DNA of 12,989 nt from a virus (taxonomy: Duplodnaviria; Heunggongvirae; Uroviricota; Caudoviricetes). The stretch lies in IMG/VR virus record IMGVR_UViG_2778261515_000012. The stretch is one strand, 5' to 3'. The notes under the pieces are model-generated. The model saw only the letters and a program-made list of their open reading frames with translations. It did no database searches and had not been told where the DNA came from. The stretch's first letter is position 1, and each line of letters starts with the position of its first letter. The translations under genes were made by a program, and so were the position numbers. Shown piece after piece: positions 1 to 11,981 of this stretch.

Positions 1-474
1 TCTGGCAGCCTGAGTTCACAGATAAAACACTCTCCAGGAAACCCGGGGCGGTTCATCGAAGCTGTCGGAAATCACCCTGACATTATTGCCGGGAGCAACA
101 ACGGTGATGGATACGACTACAAGCCTGAATGCCGTTACTTTGAGGTGAACGTGCACGGGCAGTTCGGCGGCATTGTTTACTATCAGGAGATTCAGCCGCT
201 GACATTCGATTGCCACGCCATGTACCTGCCAGAGATTCGCGGCTTCAGCAAGGAAATCGGGCTGGCGTTCTGGCGATACATTCTGACTAACACCACCGTT
301 CAGTGCGTCACATCGTTCGCCGCACGCAAATTCCGCCACGGGCAGATTTACTGCGCAATGATTGGCCTTAAGCGTGTCGGAACCATCAAGAAATACTTTA
401 AAGGCGTGGATGACGTGACGTTTTACAGCGCCACACGCGAAGAACTAATCGACTTCCTGAATCACGGGAGATAG
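1..474 (+). CDS. P22 gp14-like protein, 5'-truncated by the window edge
   Basis: Frame 1 has no stop from base 1 to the TGA at 472-474 and no in-frame ATG upstream of the GTG at 145, so the gene probably starts left of the window. It lies immediately upstream of the gp7-like gene, with a 2-nt gap. Product is assigned by synteny with the P22 order 14-7-20-16 only. Confidence 0.5.
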   Translation, partial: SGSLSSQIKHSPGNPGRFIEAVGNHPDIIAGSNNGDGYDYKPECRYFEVNVHGQFGGIVYYQEIQPLTFDCHAMYLPEIRGFSKEIGLAFWRYILTNTTVQCVTSFAARKFRHGQIYCAMIGLKRVGTIKKYFKGVDDVTFYSATREELIDFLNHGR

Positions 475-476
475 CC

Positions 477-1169
477 ATGTTATATGCATTTAAGCTGGGC
501 AGAAAACTGCGTGGCGAGGAACCTTATTGCCCTGAAAAAGGCGGGAAAGGTGGCAGTTCTGATAAAAGCGCAAAGTATGCAGCAGAAGCTCAGAAGTATG
601 CCGCAGACCTGCAAAATCAGCAGTTCAACACCATCATGAACAACCTGAAGCCGTTTACTCCTCTGGCTGATAAGTATGTCGGCAGCCTCGAGAACTTATC
701 GTCTCTGGAAGGGCAAGGTCAGGCACTTAACCAGTATTACAACTCTCAGCAGTACAAAGATCTTGCTGGTCAGGCTCGCTATCAGAGTCTGGCGGCAGCG
801 GAAGCAACAGGTGGATTGGGTTCCACTGCAACCGGTAATCAGTTAGCAACAATCGCACCAACGCTTGGTCAGCAGTGGCTGTCTGGTCAGATGAACAACT
901 ACCAGAATCTGGCAAACGTTGGGCTTGGTGCTCTGCAAGGTCAGGCAAACGCAGGGCAGACATATGCCAACAACATGAGTCAGATTTCGCAGCAAAGTGC
1001 GGCTCTTGCAGCGGCAAATGCCAACAGACCATCAGCAATGCAATCTGCTATTAGCGGAGGTGCGTCTGGTGCTATTGCTGGGGCCGGACTTGCGAAATTA
1101 ATTGGTTCATCAACTCCGTGGGGGGCTGCGATCGGCGGCGGTCTTGGTCTGCTTGGCTCGTTGTTTTAA
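477..1169 (+). CDS. Ejection (injection) protein, P22 gp7-like
   Basis: ATG at 477 preceded by GGGAGA (466-471). 230 aa, matching the size I recall for P22 gp7 (about 229 aa). Gly/Ala/Gln-rich with a hydrophobic C-terminus. First of three co-directional tightly packed genes whose sizes match P22 gp7/gp20/gp16. Confidence 0.75.
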   Translation: MLYAFKLGRKLRGEEPYCPEKGGKGGSSDKSAKYAAEAQKYAADLQNQQFNTIMNNLKPFTPLADKYVGSLENLSSLEGQGQALNQYYNSQQYKDLAGQARYQSLAAAEATGGLGSTATGNQLATIAPTLGQQWLSGQMNNYQNLANVGLGALQGQANAGQTYANNMSQISQQSAALAAANANRPSAMQSAISGGASGAIAGAGLAKLIGSSTPWGAAIGGGLGLLGSLF

Positions 1170-1179
1170 GGGGTAATCA

Positions 1180-2565
1180 ATGGCTACGTGGCAACAGGGT
1201 ATTAATTCTGGTGGTTTTCTGGCTGGCATCGGTACGCAAAATGAGAATGCGCCAAAGGCAAGCGACATTAACGCAACGCTTGGTCTGATCCGCGAAAACA
1301 ATGAACTGGCTCGCTCAGGTGCAAATAACGTTAGTCTGACCGCGTTACGTGGTCTGGCTGGAGTTGCTGATATTTACAATCAGGAACAGCAACAGAAAGC
1401 GATTAGTGCGTTCAATAAGGTTCACGCTGATGCATGGGCTTCTGGTGATCCATCGGGACTATTTAAGTTTGCCCAGGAAAATCCAGCGTTTGTTGCACAG
1501 GCACAACAGGCGTTTTCCGGTCTTAATGAGCAGCAACGCAACGATATGGGCGATTTAGCCATGAGGGCTAACGTCGCTCTTTCTCAGGGACCGGAAGCCT
1601 ACAGTAAATTCATTACTGACAACAAGGACAGGTTAAATCGCGTTGGTGCTAATGCTGACTGGATGATTCAGACAGGTATCCAGAATCCAGAGCAGCTATC
1701 ACACATGCTGACTACTATGTCTCTCGGTGCACTTGGGCCAGAAAAGGCTTTTGCTGTTCAGGATAAGATGGTTGGTCGCCAGCAGGAGCAGCAAAGAATT
1801 AACGAAACCATTCGCAATAATGACATGACGAATGCGAGGGCTATTAGGGGGCAAAACCTTTCCTATCAGTCTGCAATGACCGGACACGGACTTGCAGCAG
1901 AAAGACTGGCACTTGATAAGCAGAAATTCGGTTTTGAAGTACAACAGGCACAAAAAAAGGCCGAGGAACTTATTAATGCAGCGCCAAAATTATCAGTGAA
2001 CATGGAAAAGGCTATAGAAAAATCAGCAGGTGATGCGGCAGCTAGTCGTAATGCTGCCGATTCAATGACAACGCTCGCTGACACGCTGGAGAAGGAGAAG
2101 CCAACTCCTGGTTTGTTCGGTAACGCTGAAAATATGTTCTCTAAGCTTACGGGGCAAGATAACTACCTCCGAGATATGCGGATTAGATTCAACCAACTAG
2201 CCAATGCGCAGGCAACCAAGCTTCTCCCTCCCGGCCCTGCATCAGATAAGGATATTGAGTTTGCAAGGAAAGGCATTCCAAGCGAAACGGATAATCCAAT
2301 GGTCATGGCTCGATGGTTAAGGGGTATGGCAAAAATGGAAAGTAATAACGCGAAGTTCAACGAGTTTAGGTCAGAGTGGATGAGTGCAAACGGCAGCCCT
2401 GGACAATCTGATCGCAACCGAAACATCATGGGGATGGATGTTAAGAAGGGTGAATCATTGAACTCTGCGGCAAAACGTTTTCTTTCCTCAAGTTATGGCG
2501 ATAGCCAACCTCAACAGCAATTGTCCGATGACGAATTAATTAGCAAATATCTCGGAGGGCAGTAA
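1180..2565 (+). CDS. Ejection protein, P22 gp20-like
   Basis: ATG at 1180 preceded by AAGGGG. 461 aa (P22 gp20 is about 471 aa from memory). Its stop overlaps the next start (TAATG at 2563-2567). Assigned by size and synteny. Confidence 0.75.
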
Positions 2566-4397
2566 TGGCTTATAGTCGTGAACAATTGATGACGGCGTTA
2601 AGGAATGCTGATGCTGCTGGTGATACTGAGGGAGCACGTCGCATTGCTCAGATGCTGTCTTCTGGTGATCAATCCACTCAAAACCAATCGCAGCCAGAAG
2701 AACAATCTCTGGTAGGAAAAGCTACTGACTGGCTCACAGGTGGTCAAAGTGCAGGGCAAATTGCAGAACAGGCTGGTCGTGGTCTGGTAAACATACCATT
2801 TGACGTATTGCAGGGTGGCGCAAGTCTGATTAATGCAACCAGTCAGGGGCTTGGTGGGCCAAAAGTATTAGATGATGTCTATCGTCCAGTCGATCGACCG
2901 ACAGACCCTTATGCGCAAGCTGGAGAAACAATTGGCGGGTATTTAGTTCCAGGAGTTGGAACGGCAGGAAGCATGGCTATTGGATCACTGGCAGAGGCCG
3001 CAAATCAGAAAGGCGATTTCGCACAAAATGCAGCTAAAAATGCCGGAGTTAACCTTGCCGCTCAGGGTGTTCTTTCCGCAGCAGCAAAGGGAATAGGGCG
3101 TGGAATAACGGCTATAAAAGGTGATATTGCGCCAGAAGTGGCGAAGAAAATTGCCACATCAGAATCGATGGGCGTGACACCAATGACATCTGATGTTATC
3201 CCGCCGAAAAATGCTTTCACTCGCGGCCTTACTCAGGATGCCGAGGGGGCTTTACTCGGGACAGGCTCAAAGCGAGCGGAGCAATATGCAACGCGTAGTA
3301 AGCTGGTAAGTAATTATTTTGACCGTTTTGGTGAGTACAACCCTGATGATGTGGTGAAATCTCTGACCACCACGTTAAGGGGGCGGAAGGATGCCGCTGG
3401 CGCTGTTATCAATGACGTCACCAATAAAATGGGTAATGCCGCAGTTGATACCACAAATACCATGAATGCTCTGAATACAGCGATCGCAAGACAGGAACGG
3501 CTTGGGACTTCAGCCAATCAAAGCCTGCTTACATCCTTGCGTAACCTACGTGAAGAATTAGCAAACCCTGCAACTGATTTGGATGTTACGTTTGATCTAT
3601 TGCGTCAGCACAGAACAGCATTTAGATCTAATGTTCAGGGAGATGCTATGGTCTTCCCCAACCAGGCAAAAGCAGCTACCAATATGGTAGAGAATGCAAT
3701 GTCAAAAGACCTTCGTAACGCAGTTGCAAAAAACCTCGGTGCTTCAGACGCAGCAAAATACCTTAAAGCAAATTCCGATTATGCAAACGTTTATAATAAG
3801 GTGCTTAATAAAAACATTGCTAACAAGCTCAACAAGGCAAGCAGTGAAGCCAGTCCTGAACTTATAAATACTGTTGTATTAAGCAGAAAACCATCTGACG
3901 TGAAACGAATCTGGAGCGCATTGGATGATAAAGGGAAAGATGCTATGCGTGCAGCTTACGTCAGCAAAATAGCGGAAAAGGCCGGTGACTCTCCAGCCAA
4001 GTTCATCACTGAAGTTAATAAGCTGAAATCTCAGTCAGGCGGTGAAATTTACAACACTATTTTTTCTGGAAAGCACATGAAAGAACTTGATGCTCTTCAT
4101 GAAGTTCTACAGCAAACAGCAAGGTCAGACACCGCAAATGTAGTAACTCAGACGGGGCAATCGCAAGCCAACAGGATAAGGACGATTGGCGCAACTGCGA
4201 CTCTTGGTGTATCAATGGGGCTTGAGGCTGGTTTTGGTGCAATGATGCGTTTGTATGAGTCCAAAGCCGCAAGGAATATGCTTCTTCGTTTGGCAAACAC
4301 CAAAGCAGGAACGCCAGCTTATGAAAGAGCGCTAAATAATGCTGCAAATGCGATACGCCCTATACTTTCAAGCCAGATTACAGCAGAACAGCAATAA
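2565..4397 (+). CDS. Ejection protein, P22 gp16-like
   Basis: ATG at 2565 preceded by GGAGGG and overlapping the upstream stop by 1 nt. 610 aa (P22 gp16 is about 609 aa from memory). Last gene of the ejection cassette. Confidence 0.75.
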
Positions 4398-5269: not shown

Positions 5270-5275
5270 ATGTTT

Positions 5276-5719
5276 ATGCTCACTTGTTTTGATGTCGCCG
5301 ACTACTTCTTGGCGCATTGCGATGAAGAAAGTGGCGACATTATCTCTAACCTAAAAATTCAGAAGTTGACGTATTATGCCCAAGGGTTTTCTCTGGTTCT
5401 TCTGGGTAAGCCGCTATTTAATGAGAAAATTGAAGCCTGGATGCATGGGCCAGTAGTTCCTGAATTGTATCGTAAATATAGGGACTGTGGTAACGGAGCT
5501 TTACCTGCGCCAGAAAACTTTGACGCTAAAAAATTCAGTGAAGATGAAATTGAATTGCTGGATGAGGTGTATAAAGTTTATGGTCAGTTTTCTGCCTGGA
5601 AACTGCGCAATATGACTCACGAAGAGCAGCCATGGAAAGATGCTTACATTGAGGGTGCGGTTAGCCAAGAAATCACACTTGATTCTATGAAAGGTTTTTT
5701 CAAAACGTTAATTAACTGA
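5276..5719 (+). CDS. Panacea-domain (DUF4065, GepA/SocA-like) protein; putative antitoxin
   Basis: ORF is open from ATG 5270, but GGAGG at 5264-5268 is spaced correctly (7 nt) for the second ATG at 5276. Protein contains NLKIQKLTYYAQGF...IEAWMHGPVVPELYRKY, matching the signature of DUF4065/Panacea 'phage-associated protein' antitoxins as I recall it. No N-terminal HTH is evident. Confidence 0.7.
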   Translation: MLTCFDVADYFLAHCDEESGDIISNLKIQKLTYYAQGFSLVLLGKPLFNEKIEAWMHGPVVPELYRKYRDCGNGALPAPENFDAKKFSEDEIELLDEVYKVYGQFSAWKLRNMTHEEQPWKDAYIEGAVSQEITLDSMKGFFKTLIN

Positions 5720-5724
5720 CGTGT

Positions 5725-6147
5725 ATGTCTAGAGTTAAGGGAAGAATAAAACAGAGGGATAAAGAGAGCTCTGCTACTGTTGGCCTCTCTATCCATCACG
5801 AATCTCATGATGTAGACAAAAGTCCGCCTGTATTTTCTCTTAGATACCTACAAAAGGGGTATTGCCTAGATTGCTGCCAAAAGCATGAAAAGGCAGCATT
5901 TGCAGATAGGCTGTTCAGGTTAAGTCGGATGTCATGGGATGAGATACGAAAATCTGATAAACACGGGCTTGGGACGGAAAAAATTGCCAGAAACGCGATA
6001 AAAGCTCCGATTCCTAAGCATGTTACTCAAGATGTGGATTTCATTGCGTTCAGATTTTGCTCTAAGGCACCTATGGTTGGTTATAAGCTAGGAGCCACTT
6101 TTTATGTCTTATGGCTCGACAGGGAGTTCAAGCTATACAAGCACTAA
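5725..6147 (+). CDS. Hypothetical protein, partner of the Panacea-domain protein; candidate toxin or effector
   Basis: ATG at 5725 lies 5 nt after the upstream stop (TGA 5717-5719) with no Shine-Dalgarno, suggesting translational coupling. 140 aa, basic, with a Cys/His cluster (GYCLDCCQKHEK). The C-terminus (FIAFRF...TFYVLWLDREFKLYKH) loosely resembles C-termini of RelE/ParE-type toxins. Followed directly by an intrinsic terminator. Confidence 0.55.
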   Translation: MSRVKGRIKQRDKESSATVGLSIHHESHDVDKSPPVFSLRYLQKGYCLDCCQKHEKAAFADRLFRLSRMSWDEIRKSDKHGLGTEKIARNAIKAPIPKHVTQDVDFIAFRFCSKAPMVGYKLGATFYVLWLDREFKLYKH

Positions 6148-7137: not shown

Positions 7138-7380
7138 TTATCCTCCATCTCTTACACGTTTTAACACATCAATAGCTACATCAAACGCCTCTTGCTCAGA
7201 CTTTGTCAGGATTCGACTACTTGAAGGTATTAGCTGCCCTTTATGAATTTTTATCCATAGTTCGATAGCTGAAATAATCTCTGCGTTTATCGAGCGGCGA
7301 TTTGTTGCAGCAATATGCGTAAGTTGCTGTTTTATCTCATCAGGCATTCTTACGTTGAATTGTGGATCATTTCTAGCCAC
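7138..7380 (-). CDS. mnt: Mnt-like ribbon-helix-helix repressor
   Basis: N-terminus MARNDPQFNVRMPDEIKQQL...NRRSINAEI matches P22 Mnt (MARDDPHFNFRMP...NGRSMNSEL, recalled). 80 aa versus about 83 aa for P22 Mnt. AAGGAG RBS on the minus strand. Divergent from arc as in P22 immI. Confidence 0.8.
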   Translation of the reverse strand: MARNDPQFNVRMPDEIKQQLTHIAATNRRSINAEIISAIELWIKIHKGQLIPSSSRILTKSEQEAFDVAIDVLKRVRDGG

Positions 7381-7473
7381 GTCGTTCTCCTTTTATTTGT
7401 TGACATGCTAGAACGGTAGTAGTACGCTTTCAATAGTAGTACGGTACTATCAATGAGTGAAATGGAGTTGAAT
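7381..7473. promoter_or_regulatory. immI-like divergent promoter/operator region between mnt and arc
   Basis: TTGACA at 7400-7405. Direct repeat TAGTAGTACG at 7417-7426 and 7434-7443. The 21-mer at 7433-7453 (ATAGTAGTACGGTACTATCAA) shares both outer half-sites with the P22 arc operator ATAGTAGAGTGCTTCTATCAT (recalled). Confidence 0.5.
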
Positions 7474-7632
7474 ATGCAAGGTGCAAGAAAAATGCCTCAG
7501 TTCAATTTGCGGTGGCCTAAAGAAGTATTGGATTTGGTGCGCAAGGTAGCTGAAGAGAACGGGCGATCTGTTAACTCTGAGATTTACAAGCGAGTGTTGG
7601 ACAGCCTGAAGAGAGAGGGGATAACGGTATGA
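7474..7632 (+). CDS. arc: Arc-like ribbon-helix-helix repressor
   Basis: Translation MQGARKMPQFNLRWPKEVLDLVRKVAEENGRSVNSEIYKRVLDSLKREGITV is near-identical to P22 Arc (MKGMSKMPQFNLRWPREVLDLVRKVAEENGRSVNSEIYQRVMESFKKEGRIGA, recalled). GGAG at 7464-7467. 52 aa, below the ORF-track length cutoff, so found by direct reading. Confidence 0.85.
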   Translation: MQGARKMPQFNLRWPKEVLDLVRKVAEENGRSVNSEIYKRVLDSLKREGITV

Positions 7633-7850
7633 GGTTTATTGAGGTTGATGAGATTGGCTATGAGAATGCACTTGGTAGAGGTAAATCTTTAGTTAACATT
7701 GATGGCATTGAATCGATAAGGAGTGGTGAATTTACGGAGATCAGAATGATGTCAGGCGGAATCATTCCTTGCCGTGACTCAGTAGAGTCAATCAAATCAA
7801 AAATGAGTGGTCAGTGGCTTTATAGCTACAGTGACTTACAAAAACGTTGA
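7629..7850 (+). CDS. Hypothetical protein translationally coupled to arc
   Basis: ATG at 7629 overlaps the arc stop (ATGA). 73 aa with no motif I recognise. Followed by an inverted repeat GAAGCCC...GGGCTTC (7849-7880). Confidence 0.5.
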   Translation: MRFIEVDEIGYENALGRGKSLVNIDGIESIRSGEFTEIRMMSGGIIPCRDSVESIKSKMSGQWLYSYSDLQKR

Positions 7851-7912
7851 AGCCCCAACTGCGGTAACAGTCAGGGCTTCGGTATCAACAAATCGGCTTA
7901 GGAAATATTGAC

Positions 7913-8263
7913 ATGAAAAGTATAGCAAAGGCACAAAACGATTTCACCATCTTCAAATTTGGCGACAGTGAAATTCGCGTCATTAACAAGTGCGGCGAGC
8001 CGTGGTTTGTAGCTAAAGATGTTTGTGATGCTTTAGCTTTGACTAACTCACGCAAGGCGCTTACTGCACTTGATGACGATGAAAAGGGAGTAACTTTAAG
8101 TTACACCCTTGGTGGTGAGCAGAATCTAAGCATTGTGAGCGAATCAGGTATGTATACATTGGTTCTGCGCTGCCGCGATGCAGTCAATAAAGGTTCAGTC
8201 CCACACAAATTCCGCAAGTGGGTAACAGCAGAAGTTCTGCCTTCAATTCGCAAACATGGCTAG
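7913..8263 (+). CDS. Antirepressor-like protein, Bro-N domain (N-terminal part, ends at in-frame TAG)
   Basis: AGGA RBS upstream of ATG 7913. Sequence FKFGDSEIRVINKCGEPWFVAKDVCDALALTN...GMYTLVLRCRDAV...FRKWVTAEVLPSIRKHG is a typical Bro-N/AntA N-terminal domain. Ends at amber TAG 8261-8263, inside the conserved IRK-x-G-x-Y motif. Confidence 0.7.
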   Translation: MKSIAKAQNDFTIFKFGDSEIRVINKCGEPWFVAKDVCDALALTNSRKALTALDDDEKGVTLSYTLGGEQNLSIVSESGMYTLVLRCRDAVNKGSVPHKFRKWVTAEVLPSIRKHG

Positions 8264-8323
8264 TATGTTAAAGGAAAGAAAACCACTGTTGAGGAAAGAA
8301 CACCGCTACGCGATGCAGTAAAC

Positions 8324-8791
8324 ATGCTGGTAGGAAAGAAAGGACTTCGCTATGACGATGCATACAATATGGTTCATCAGCGTTTTGGTATTGACAGCAT
8401 TGATGAACTTTCAATTGAACAAATCCCGCTGGCCGTAGAGTACATCCACAGGGTAGTGCTTGAAGGTGAGTTCATTGGCAAACAAGAGAAGAAAACCAAC
8501 GAGCTTTCTGCAAAAGAAGCAAACAGCCTTGTATGGTTATGGGATTATGCCAACCGCTCACAGGCATTATTCCGCGAACTGTATCCGGCGCTAAAACAAA
8601 TTCAATCGAACTATTCCGGCAGATGCTACGACTACGGTCATGAATTCTCGTATGTTATCGGAATGGCGAGAGACGTTTTAATAAACCACACACGAGATGT
8701 TGATATCAATGAGCCAGACGGACCAACGAATCTTTCCGCATGGATGAGACTTAAGAATAAAGAATTACCTCCTTCAGTACATAACTACTGA
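8324..8791 (+). CDS. Antirepressor-like C-terminal part (same frame as 7913-8263)
   Basis: Same reading frame as the Bro-N ORF; the only stop between them is TAG 8261-8263 and the 20 codons from 8264 to 8323 are open. No RBS before ATG 8324. The two parts together are 293 codons, about the size of P22 Ant (300 aa). Followed by a terminator. Confidence 0.55.
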
Positions 8792-8808: not shown

Positions 8809-8834
8809 GACCCAGCTTCGGCTGGGTTTTTTTA
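8809..8834 (+). terminator. Rho-independent terminator after the antirepressor region
   Basis: GACCCAGC-ttcg-GCTGGGT stem-loop followed by TTTTTTT (8827-8833), 18 nt after the stop at 8791. Confidence 0.6.
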
Positions 8835-8891
8835 TGCCCAAAATTCACCGTAGCCATGCTGCGGCGATTCCTTGTATCTGGAGCAAATTAA

Positions 8892-10592
8892 ATGACAGAC
8901 ATTACAGCCAATGTTGTAGTGAGCATGCCTTCGCAACTCTTCACTATGGCGCGTTCTTTTAAAGCTGTAGCTAATGGCAAAATTTATATCGGAAAGATTG
9001 ATACTGATCCGGTAAATTCAGAAAACCAGATTCCGGTTTATGTAAGGAGCGAAGACGGTTCTCATATTGCCGTCTCACAGCCAATAGTTATCAATGCGGC
9101 TGGATATCCTGTATATAACGGGCAGATTGCCAAATTCGTTACTGTACAGGGCCATTCTATGGCTGTTTATGATGCGTACGGTGTGCAGCAGTTCTATTTT
9201 CCGAATGTGCTGAAGTATGATCCTGATCAGTTTGAGAAGAGATTGGCATCTTCTGGAGGGGACAAATTAGTAGGGAGTTCATGGGGTGGGCAAAGCATCT
9301 ATGATGACTACGCTCCAAAAAAACTAACCCGACCTGCCGTTATCATTGAGCCAAGTTATTCTCACTCGGATATTCAGTCGCTACTGAGCTCTGGTGGAGA
9401 TATTTATTTCATGCCAGGAATTTATCCGGTAGATGCAACATATTACTATTACGGGAATACAACGATCCATCAGTCAAGAGACGCTATTTTTTATGCAAAT
9501 AGAGACAATATTACGCTATTTAAAGCTGATCCAGCTGTTGCTGGCACTGATTATATTAGAAATATACAGGTGCATAACCCTCGAATTGATTTTAACGGAA
9601 AGGCTGGAGTTGTCGGAATTGATTTAATCAAATGCCGTAATAACTCGGGCATTTTTGGATTGTGGGTAGATATGCAGTTAGGCCGGGACTGCGTTGGCAT
9701 GAGAGCTGGCTTGCTTTGCTACGGGCTTAAAAATGACAATCCAGAAATAATGAATGGTGGGACAGGATCTACGAGGCTTATCTATCAGAATGGCGCTAAT
9801 GCCTGCAAGATCCTCAATCCCAATTTATACAGTAGTGACCCAGGCGGCGTCCTCCCTGACTATGGCCTAGTGATAAGAAACGGGTTGAATGGAATTGATG
9901 TCGATAATTCGACAACGTTTAACACTACGGCGGTAGTTTTAGATGGTGGTTTTATACAGAACTGTGAACGATATGGAACTATGGATCACGGGGCCATAGG
10001 AACAGAGCTAATGGGGAATACATATTACGAGGCATGTAAAATTGCGGATATCAATCTATCATCATCCAGGGGAGCTTTAGTAAGCAGTTCTCATCACTCA
10101 TCTACAAGCGGCACTGTTTGCATCAGAGCAAAAAACACATCAGGCTGCCGTGTGATGAACGTAAACCTACGCGGAGATCGTTCAACTGGCTTTTATGATG
10201 CAGACAGCAGCAACTCAGGCTTAACAATTGAGCATAAGCGCGACCGCCTAACCGCCCTAATCGGTGATGTGAGTGGTGCTGTAGTGAGTGGTCTGGAAAA
10301 TGACATTCGCACAATTACATTACCAGAACCAGTTCCGGTAAGAAGCGGCCATAGTTCGTTTTACATCCCAGTAACCAACGGGGCAAACATTACCACTCAG
10401 GGGCAGGCTTATGACGGGCAGGAAATCGAGTTGATATTACGGGGAAGAAATTTAACCTCTCTTACATTTTTGGGTAAACCGATCTCATTGGATGGTGTAG
10501 GGGAAGATTACAAGGTCTGTCGTTTGCGAGCTCGATATATGAGCTTGTTTGATGCGTGGCTGATCGGCGATGCGCAATGGAAAGTTGTATAA
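8892..10592 (+). CDS. Tailspike protein: P22-like head-binding N-terminus plus a distinct receptor-binding beta-helix domain
   Basis: GGAG RBS 8 nt upstream. The first 110 aa or so ([42 protein letters not shown]...[15 protein letters not shown]...NVLKYDPDQ) closely match the P22 gp9 head-binding domain as recalled. The rest is Gly/Asn/Ser-rich and repeat-like, as expected for a beta-helix, and unlike P22. 566 aa. Confidence 0.85.
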
Positions 10593-10596
10593 GAAT

Positions 10597-11745
10597 CTAC
10601 TCATCAATCCAATCAGCCCACCACTGCATCATCTCCCGGCGCTTATCCATGTACTGAGCGTGATTGTATATCCCACGAATGGAGCCGCTGTTAGCGTGCG
10701 CCAGTTGCTTCTCAATGGCATCAGCGGGCCATTCGTGCTCGTTCATAATCGTGCTGAATTCATGCCTGAATCCGTGACCGCTTTCCAGACCCTCATAGCC
10801 GATTTGTTTGATCACAAGCAATACCGCGTTCTCGCAGATTGGCTTCTTCTTATCGTTGCGTCCGGCAAAAACAAACTCTGATACTGGTTTAGTGATGGAG
10901 CTTAGCGTAGTGAGAAGTTCAACTACCTGGTCCGACATCGGAACCACATGAATCTTGCGTCCCTTCATCACATTGGCGTCTATGGTGATAATCCTGTTTT
11001 CAAAATCGACGTTCTTCCATTGCATGGAACGAAGCTCTTTTGTTCTGAGGGCTGTGTAGCGTAAAACTTTGGTCGCAATGAGCGATACGATACTTCCTGA
11101 AAATGTAGCCAGTGCTTTGTTGAATGCCGGGATCTGGTCTGCAGGAAGAAACGGGAAGTTCTTCTTGCGGTATCCCTTCATGGCGTCAGCAAGGTCAGGT
11201 GCCGGGTTATATTTAGCCCTACCAGTGACAATAGCGTAACGGAAAACCTCACCGCATCTTCTGCGGGCTTTATTTGCTCGCTCCATTGCACCGCGATCTT
11301 CAAATCTGCGGATTACTTCCAGCAGTTGCATCGGCTCAATATCCTGAATTTCAAGGCCGCCGATGATAGGTAAAATGTCGTCATCAAACATTTTTGCAAG
11401 TTCAGTCGCATACCCTACTGACCAGACTTGCTTCTTGTGCTCGTACCATTCCTTGTAAATGGCGCTAAAGGAGTTGTTGTTAGACGAAGCCTTTTTCGCT
11501 TTTACCGGATCGATGCCAACCGAGATGTCTTTCCTCGCAGTCCATGCTTTATCCCTTGCCTCCTGCAAAGTCATAAGCGGATATTTTCCGACGGTAAGGA
11601 TTTTCTCCTTACCGTCAATCTTGTAGCGAAGCTGCCATACCTTTTTCCCGGATACAGGGACATAAAGGTACAGGCCATTACCATCGAGAAGGCGGTATGG
11701 TTTTTCTTTCGGCTTTGCTGCTTCAATCTGCTTAACGGTGAGCAT
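10597..11745 (-). CDS. int: Tyrosine integrase, P4/IntS type
   Basis: ORF open from GTG 11781, but the conserved P4-type N-terminus begins at Met13 (ATG at 11745): MLTVKQIEAAKPKEKPYRLLDGNGLYLYV...GKKVWQLRYKIDGKEKILTVGKYP. The C-terminal half carries the catalytic-domain context (HGFRHEF...IRGIYNHAQY). Adjacent to a tRNA gene. Confidence 0.9.
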   Translation of the reverse strand: MLTVKQIEAAKPKEKPYRLLDGNGLYLYVPVSGKKVWQLRYKIDGKEKILTVGKYPLMTLQEARDKAWTARKDISVGIDPVKAKKASSNNNSFSAIYKEWYEHKKQVWSVGYATELAKMFDDDILPIIGGLEIQDIEPMQLLEVIRRFEDRGAMERANKARRRCGEVFRYAIVTGRAKYNPAPDLADAMKGYRKKNFPFLPADQIPAFNKALATFSGSIVSLIATKVLRYTALRTKELRSMQWKNVDFENRIITIDANVMKGRKIHVVPMSDQVVELLTTLSSITKPVSEFVFAGRNDKKKPICENAVLLVIKQIGYEGLESGHGFRHEFSTIMNEHEWPADAIEKQLAHANSGSIRGIYNHAQYMDKRREMMQWWADWIDE

Positions 11746-11906: not shown

Positions 11907-11981
11907 TGGTGTCCCCTGCAGGAATCGAACCTGCAATTAGCCCTTAGGAGGGGCTCGTTATATCCATTTAACTAAGAGGAC
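11907..11981 (-). tRNA. argW: tRNA-Arg (anticodon CCU)
   Basis: Reverse complement reads GTCCTCTTAGTTAAATGGATATAACGAGCCCCTCCTAAGGGCTAATTGCAGGTTCGATTCCTGCAGGGGACACCA. Folded by hand into a cloverleaf: 7-bp acceptor stem, D stem GTTA/TAAC, anticodon stem AGCCC/GGGCT with loop CTCCTAA (anticodon CCT), T stem GCAGG/CCTGC, encoded CCA. 75 nt. Confidence 0.85.

Follow-up and report, generated by a model that had tools for sequence, protein, structure and literature searches.

In a P22-like prophage, two neighboring open reading frames lie in one frame and are parted by an amber codon. The arrangement raises the question whether they represent two genes, a single gene that is still expressed in full, or the pieces of a broken antirepressor gene (ant). 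The DNA under study, here called the window, is a stretch of 12,989 nucleotides (IMG/VR record IMGVR_UViG_2778261515_000012). An earlier note, prepared from its sequence, had proposed that a nonsense mutation inactivated one ant gene. The best explanation is very probably a recent, clonally inherited nonsense pseudogene of ant in a P22-like argW prophage.

Reading frame and domains of the interrupted gene

Window positions 7913-8791 comprise 293 codons in one frame with TAG 8261-8263 as sole internal stop and a terminal TGA. The list of open reading frames contains 7913-8263 (116 aa) and 8324-8791 (155 aa). Translation confirmed the coordinates and the statement of the earlier note that both share a frame and are split by this TAG alone; the combined length of 293 codons given there was reproduced on retranslation. 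The gene is composed of the following parts:

7913..8263, plus strand: 5' part of ant, codons 1-116 (Bro-N) and the premature TAG; the only part expected to be translated
8261..8263, plus strand: nonsense codon TAG; GAG (Glu117) in every intact relative examined
8264..8791, plus strand: 3' part of ant, codons 118-292 and the stop TGA 8789-8791; includes the open reading frame 8324-8791 and P22AR_C (approximately 8486-8704)

An uninterrupted frame of approximately 290-310 codons, usual for P22-type ant genes, is absent with TAG at codon 117; intact Ant relatives have 292-311 aa. Residues 20-110 match Bro-N (PF02498) with 71.8-74.4 bits over the full Pfam model (1-96/96; gathering score 25.6). 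A P22AR_C domain (PF10548; residues 192-264, 103-105 bits; gathering score 22.4) is encoded 3' of TAG.

The residues AEVLPSIRKHG precede the stop and YVKGKK follow it. The position was said to fall into the Bro-N motif IRK-x-G-x-Y, and TAG indeed takes the place of the x between G and Y. A search with the 116-aa fragment against 1.84 billion cluster representatives yielded 23,767 Bro-N relatives, of which 146 diverse ones were analyzed. They conserve the motif V-L-P-x-I-R-K-x-G-x-Y, with G116 in 141/146 and Y118 in 132/146, while residue 117 is variable (S/G/E/R/K/Q and others). The motif lies just past the end of the Pfam Bro-N envelope at residue 110. In the window it is encoded, but incompletely translated: the product stops at G116, without Y118.

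The prophage and its immI region

The window is assigned to the right end of a P22-like (Lederbergvirus) prophage, located at tRNA-Arg argW/yfdC in an E. coli chromosome. The gene order is 7, 20 and 16; small accessory genes including a SocA/Panacea gene; mnt (minus strand), arc, orf73 and ant; the tailspike gene; the integrase gene (minus strand); argW; and yfdC. Pfam families of the called genes comprise P22_gp7, Inj_translocase, Phage_P22_gp16, Head_binding, and Phage_integrase. Best phage matches to the window were Kapi1, EC.P3, Emek, phiv205-1, and CUS-3. In its chromosomal flank, the window matches E. coli strains such as UMNK88 with 100% identity. Kapi1 is a characterized temperate phage that integrates into argW (PMC8787464). 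The features around ant are:

7138..7380, minus strand: mnt-type Arc-family maintenance repressor gene, 80 aa, intact; protein identical in UMNK88 and Emek
7381..7473, no strand: divergent mnt/ant promoter-operator region, its function suggested by position; identical to the Emek intergenic region
7474..7632, plus strand: arc, 52-aa Arc-family repressor (Pfam Arc), intact; protein identical in UMNK88 and Emek
7629..7850, plus strand: orf73, small gene lying after arc and before ant; conserved with 1 aa difference in both Emek and UMNK88
7845..7911, minus strand: sar antisense RNA gene (Rfam RF00262, 69.6 bits, model 1-68/68); ends 2 nt before the ant ATG
8809..8836, plus strand: intrinsic terminator-like hairpin and T-run between ant and the tailspike gene; a terminator of Emek is annotated at the same place
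8892..10592, plus strand: tailspike gene, 566 aa, P22 head-binding domain (Pfam Head_binding, 210 bits)
10597..11745, minus strand: prophage integrase gene IntS, 382 aa as called, from the gene calls of locus L004 and the RefSeq annotation of the UMNK88 homologue
11907..11981, minus strand: tRNA-Arg (CCT) argW, prophage attachment site (ARAGORN, Rfam tRNA)

The promoter-operator region contains TTGACA at 7400-7405, repeated TAGTAGTAC motifs, and a minus-strand promoter-like site at 7433-7405. The sar gene scored above its Rfam gathering score of 43. A minus-strand promoter-like site (7947-7919) is situated inside the first ant codons and a terminator-like hairpin at 7880-7849. No Pfam match was obtained for orf73. 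The context of a P22-type immI region is present, with divergent mnt, arc, sar over the ant start, and the tailspike gene downstream. Since a full-length sar RNA ends 2 nt from the ant ATG, the region is considered a complete P22-type immI region apart from the interrupted ant, and window 7913-8791 is taken as its ant gene. The immI region of P22-like phages has been named 'ant moron' (Villafane et al., 2008; PMC2629481).

Intact homologues and the ancestral codon

The phages Kapi1 and EC.P3 carry an uninterrupted gene of 879 nt at the same position. The protein cluster P0001 (292 aa; 1319 members on 740 contigs) is 98% identical to the read-through translation. The existence of this uninterrupted cluster means that the single-gene status is not down to chance. 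Alignment with intact Ant/Bro-N proteins had been proposed as a check; homology to the 292-aa proteins continues unbroken across TAG. The window ant differs from Kapi1 ant in 11 nt, of which 10 are synonymous, and the sole protein change is Glu117 (GAG) to stop (TAG). Homology across the stop and the difference in codon 117 only thus support the proposal of one ant gene inactivated by a nonsense mutation.

Gene nucleotide 349 is G in 5/5 intact comparators (Kapi1, EC.P3, and the loci L015, L017, and L018). With G in the first position of codon 117 in all five, the mutation is best described as a G-to-T transversion at window 8261, GAG to TAG. The change from CAG to TAG, given as an example in the earlier note, was rejected, as all intact relatives have GAG.

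Kapi1 Ant (Kapi1_065; vB_EcoP_Kapi1, MT813197) resembles the window gene in the combination of Bro-N and P22AR_C and in the order arc - ant - tailspike. The nucleotide identity is 98.8% and the residues are the same except at codon 117, which is GAG (Glu) in the uninterrupted Kapi1 gene. In Kapi1, an HNH endonuclease gene follows ant ahead of the tailspike gene; the window has none there. The GenBank coding sequence of Kapi1 ant (L001 3008-3952, 945 nt) starts 66 nt upstream of the ATG in EC.P3 and the window and overlaps the sar region. The 292-aa form, which matches cluster P0001, probably represents the true start of Kapi1 Ant.

Modular build of Ant

In natural Ant proteins, any of three unrelated N-terminal modules precedes the C-terminal part of approximately 170 residues: Bro-N in the window and Kapi1, KilA-N in Emek, and P22_AR_N (PF10547) in P22 and UMNK88. 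P22_AR_N is not present in the window Ant, which has Bro-N in its stead. The modules meet at approximately codon 122 (window ~8276-8300), five codons after TAG. The likeness to P22 Ant suggested earlier holds for the C-terminal part: residues 122-292 share 85% identity over 171 aa with residues 130-300 of P22 Ant, P22AR_C included. It does not hold for the N-terminus, where P22_AR_N and Bro-N have no detectable similarity. The immI regions of P22 and the window agree in the divergent mnt, arc, sar over the ant start, and the location of ant upstream of the tailspike gene. The window differs from P22 in an additional orf73 between arc and ant and in the ant gene broken by TAG.

Salmonella phage vB_SemP_Emek has Mnt and Arc proteins and a mnt-arc operator region identical to those of the window, and its orf73 product differs in one residue. 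Emek Ant is identical or near-identical from approximately codon 122, but has a KilA-N module at the N-terminus and an intact gene. Locus L011 is a prophage that matches the window with 99.7-99.9% identity on either side of a different mnt/arc/ant module. Such a swap between near-identical flanks indicates that immI is exchanged as a cassette between near-identical backbones. The joint is a natural boundary between modules of the mosaic Ant family and could be of use for finding out which of them contacts the repressor.

An AF2 model of the intact homologue P0001 had a mean pLDDT of 63.9 (moderate confidence). In it, the N-terminal domain finishes with a helix (residues 98-113), residues 114-129 form a low-confidence linker, and two helical regions follow (131-184 and 200-282). 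In this model, the truncated product would keep essentially the entire Bro-N module and lose Tyr118 and everything shared with P22 Ant. The 116-residue product could retain some activity, because the whole predicted Bro-N fold is kept apart from Tyr118. A sequence search of the PDB found no relative; the best match, CorA (E = 0.21), was taken as chance. A Foldseek search of the model against the PDB yielded nothing significant (best E = 0.33), with weak matches to SKI/Dachshund domains.

Distribution of the TAG allele

The exact 116-aa product was located on 42 public contigs and the 155-aa open reading frame on 40 in an exact-protein index. The contigs with the 116-aa product originate from NCBI assemblies and from independently assembled read sets (Logan). 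Across 11-13 kb, five carrier loci (L004-L007 and L010) match the window with 99.88-100% identity. All five have TAG and share the chromosomal site. Per ~11.7 kb, 0-3 SNPs separate L004, L006, and L007 from the window, and L010 is identical over the shared stretch. Further changes in ant were found in none of the carriers examined, L005 included.

Among 363 complete E. coli records holding the segment, none carries TAG or is identical over the 81 nt around it; the best has one mismatch. The exact 35-nt TAG pattern was not found in GTDB representative genomes, JGI metagenome contigs, or IMG/VR. A literature search by accession of the carrier assemblies found no papers. Judged from these comparisons, TAG is regarded as a genuine allele, which arose once in one prophage lineage and was inherited with it. 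The mutation appears recent, because no other amino acid differs from the Ant of a working phage and no further ant changes have accumulated in the carriers. As a clonal marker, the allele could identify the carrier lineage.

Consequences of the stop codon

A single G-to-T change converted Glu117 into an amber codon at the variable x of the IRK-x-G-x-Y motif closing Bro-N. In a host with the standard code, translation from the ant start must end after 116 residues, leaving a Bro-N-only fragment without the 175 C-terminal residues, among them P22AR_C. Antirepressor activity is probably lost together with the C-terminal 60% of the protein. Binding and inactivation of the C2/CI repressor have been established for P22 Ant only, according to the literature cited in two papers (PMC2629481, PMC11016777).

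The loss is presumably tolerated because ant/immI is dispensable in P22, for lytic growth as well as for lysogeny. The region has been described as 'not essential for lysogeny' in P22 (PMC11016777), and ant- mutants of P22 are viable according to classical literature cited in PMC2629481. The ant moron undergoes genetic flux at a high rate, and HK620 and Scho1 have degraded ant genes (PMC2629481). The interruption is therefore an event of a familiar type, observed at the earliest stage. As in the window, the antirepressor of HK620 and Scho1 has been lost between the late genes and the tailspike gene. Their ant genes are degraded remnants, whereas the window ant is complete save one nonsense codon, a very early stage.

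The allele would have spread vertically with the host clone, as an early step in the decay of an accessory gene and of the prophage. Carriers show decay beyond ant, namely an IS3-family end in gene 14 of the window and replaced upstream late genes in L005. The pattern of damage fits ordinary prophage decay after a nonsense mutation, under neutral drift or weak selection. A relevant polar effect on the tailspike gene is not expected, because a terminator already separates it from ant and P22 late transcripts are antiterminated. The gene inactivation is ordinary and recent, concerns an accessory region known for its high flux, and involves no new mechanism. Its significance beyond annotation is small: the 116-aa and 155-aa open reading frames in ~40 public assemblies are to be annotated as one ant pseudogene. 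The locus shows with clarity how the decay of an accessory gene in a P22-like prophage begins, with one nonsense codon, no other amino acid change, and intact regulators.

Possible selection for the loss of Ant

The earlier note considered an inactivation selected to stabilize lysogeny. An adaptive loss of Ant, which either stabilizes lysogeny or rescues a prophage with failed ant control, is unlikely. The allele is fixed in a lineage of ~40 assemblies, which agrees with a benefit. In P22, ant- mutations suppress mnt or arc defects, a parallel for such a rescue. Unregulated Ant is reportedly harmful, as known from the classical P22 genetics of Susskind and Botstein (cited in PMC2629481), a further point in favor. 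In Kapi1 lysogens, mnt transcripts were not detected (PMC12922286), which may mean a looser control of Ant in this group. Against this, Mnt and Arc are identical to the proteins of UMNK88 and Emek, in which ant is intact, the operator region is that of Emek, and sar is full length. With Mnt, Arc, operator, and sar intact, there is no visible regulatory defect to compensate. Compensation for a broken mnt, arc, or operator was rejected on these identities to relatives with intact ant, and the proposed stabilization of lysogeny found no support. The carriers examined share one near-identical prophage at one site, consistent with a single event riding a clone, and intact alleles are vastly more common (740 contigs with the intact 292-aa cluster vs. 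42 with the truncated product).

One gene or two

Two genuinely separate genes had been listed as an alternative, to be recognized by homologues ending at the same position. None of the 141 diverse Bro-N proteins that align through G116 ends within 5 residues of it; they continue for at least 11 residues (median 134). The first in-frame start past TAG is ATG 8324, 61 nt after the stop, and no alternative in-frame start exists. A Shine-Dalgarno sequence was not found at ATG 8324 (duplex dG +0.3 kcal/mol), in comparison to -4.2 to -10.0 kcal/mol for ant, arc, orf73, the tailspike gene, and genes 7, 20, and 16. The reading as two genes was rejected because no Bro-N protein ends near TAG and ATG 8324 has no Shine-Dalgarno sequence. 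An independent downstream gene was discarded for the same reasons and the lack of another start. The downstream open reading frame of 155 codons is thus classed as an untranslated remnant and not as a gene.

A related proposal concerns a functional fission of ant by the mutation itself. The amber codon may have created a stand-alone Bro-N protein, perhaps with traces of the C-terminal module from readthrough or re-initiation, which was retained for changing the behavior of the prophage; this is quite improbable. If true, the Bro-N fragment may act, e.g., as a dominant-negative or decoy form by which the antirepressors of P22-like phages, co-resident or superinfecting, are blocked, or as a tuned-down induction switch. 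The locus would then be a natural case of module-level 'gene fission' in the mosaic Ant family. The stricter version, a fission into a stand-alone Bro-N and possibly a separate C-terminal protein from ATG 8324, with a regulatory function kept or gained, is somewhat less probable still. Its appeal is that TAG falls where the predicted inter-domain linker begins and precedes by 5 codons the joint at which Bro-N, KilA-N, and P22_AR_N are exchanged. Both pieces are near-complete modules, and neither half has gathered further mutations. The lack of further decay is, however, equally expected of a very recent mutation, with carriers differing by so few SNPs. The near-invariant Tyr118 is lost, the point of fission is not used as an end by any of the 141 diverse Bro-N proteins, and the missing ribosome-binding site 61 nt past the stop argues against a C-terminal protein.

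Suppression and sequencing error as alternatives

Compared with the pseudogene, a full-length Ant obtained by amber suppression (a host tRNA of the supE/supF type) or by natural readthrough, with activity attenuated and not abolished, is scarcely credible. Nothing favors it directly. Some leakiness is possible at amber codons, and position 117, being variable among Bro-N relatives, would probably tolerate most inserted amino acids. A suppressor tRNA was not found in the window or in the 17-20 kb loci of the five carriers, in which tRNA-Arg (CCT) is the sole tRNA. The carriers are natural isolates from several independent assemblies. The base after the amber codon is T, and amber followed by T is an efficient termination context in E. 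coli, which counts against suppression.

A sequencing or assembly error with GAG as true base, compatible with a difference of one base from intact relatives, is practically excluded by TAG in at least five loci from NCBI and Logan assemblies and by the 42 contigs with the exact truncated product.

Other features of the prophage

Window positions 1-55 match, with 100% identity, the end of an IS3-family element of UMNK88, by which the portal gene of a related prophage is truncated there. In the window, this end takes the place of the first 36 nt of gene 14 (window 19-474, as judged from L004), and the start of gene 14 is lost. The junction is absent from the TAG carriers L004 and L010, which retain the full morphogenetic module. 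In L005 (GCA_021649625.1), everything upstream of gene 20, including gene 7, is replaced (1-3263, junction at window ~1171). The replacement comprises a primase-type gene (Zn_Ribbon_Prim/Toprim_3/DUF5906) and small open reading frames; it may represent a satellite-like element, or the late operon of the prophage may have been rearranged internally.

The tailspike gene and the convergent integrase gene meet at their 3' ends, 4 nt apart (10592-10597), and the only Pfam domain of the tailspike is the head-binding domain. O-antigen-modifying genes (gtr/acyltransferase) are absent between the two, unlike in several related argW prophages.

The SocA/Panacea-domain gene (5270-5719, plus strand; PF13274, 87 bits) is followed after 5 nt by an open reading frame of 140 aa (5725-6147, plus strand) with no Pfam match. 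Gene callers split on the latter, which is called with 72 or 140 aa on identical DNA. The resulting differences in gene content among carriers, as well as a missing arc call in L006, were attributed to gene calling, with the DNA unchanged. The two genes may constitute a toxin-antitoxin-like accessory pair within the ant moron.
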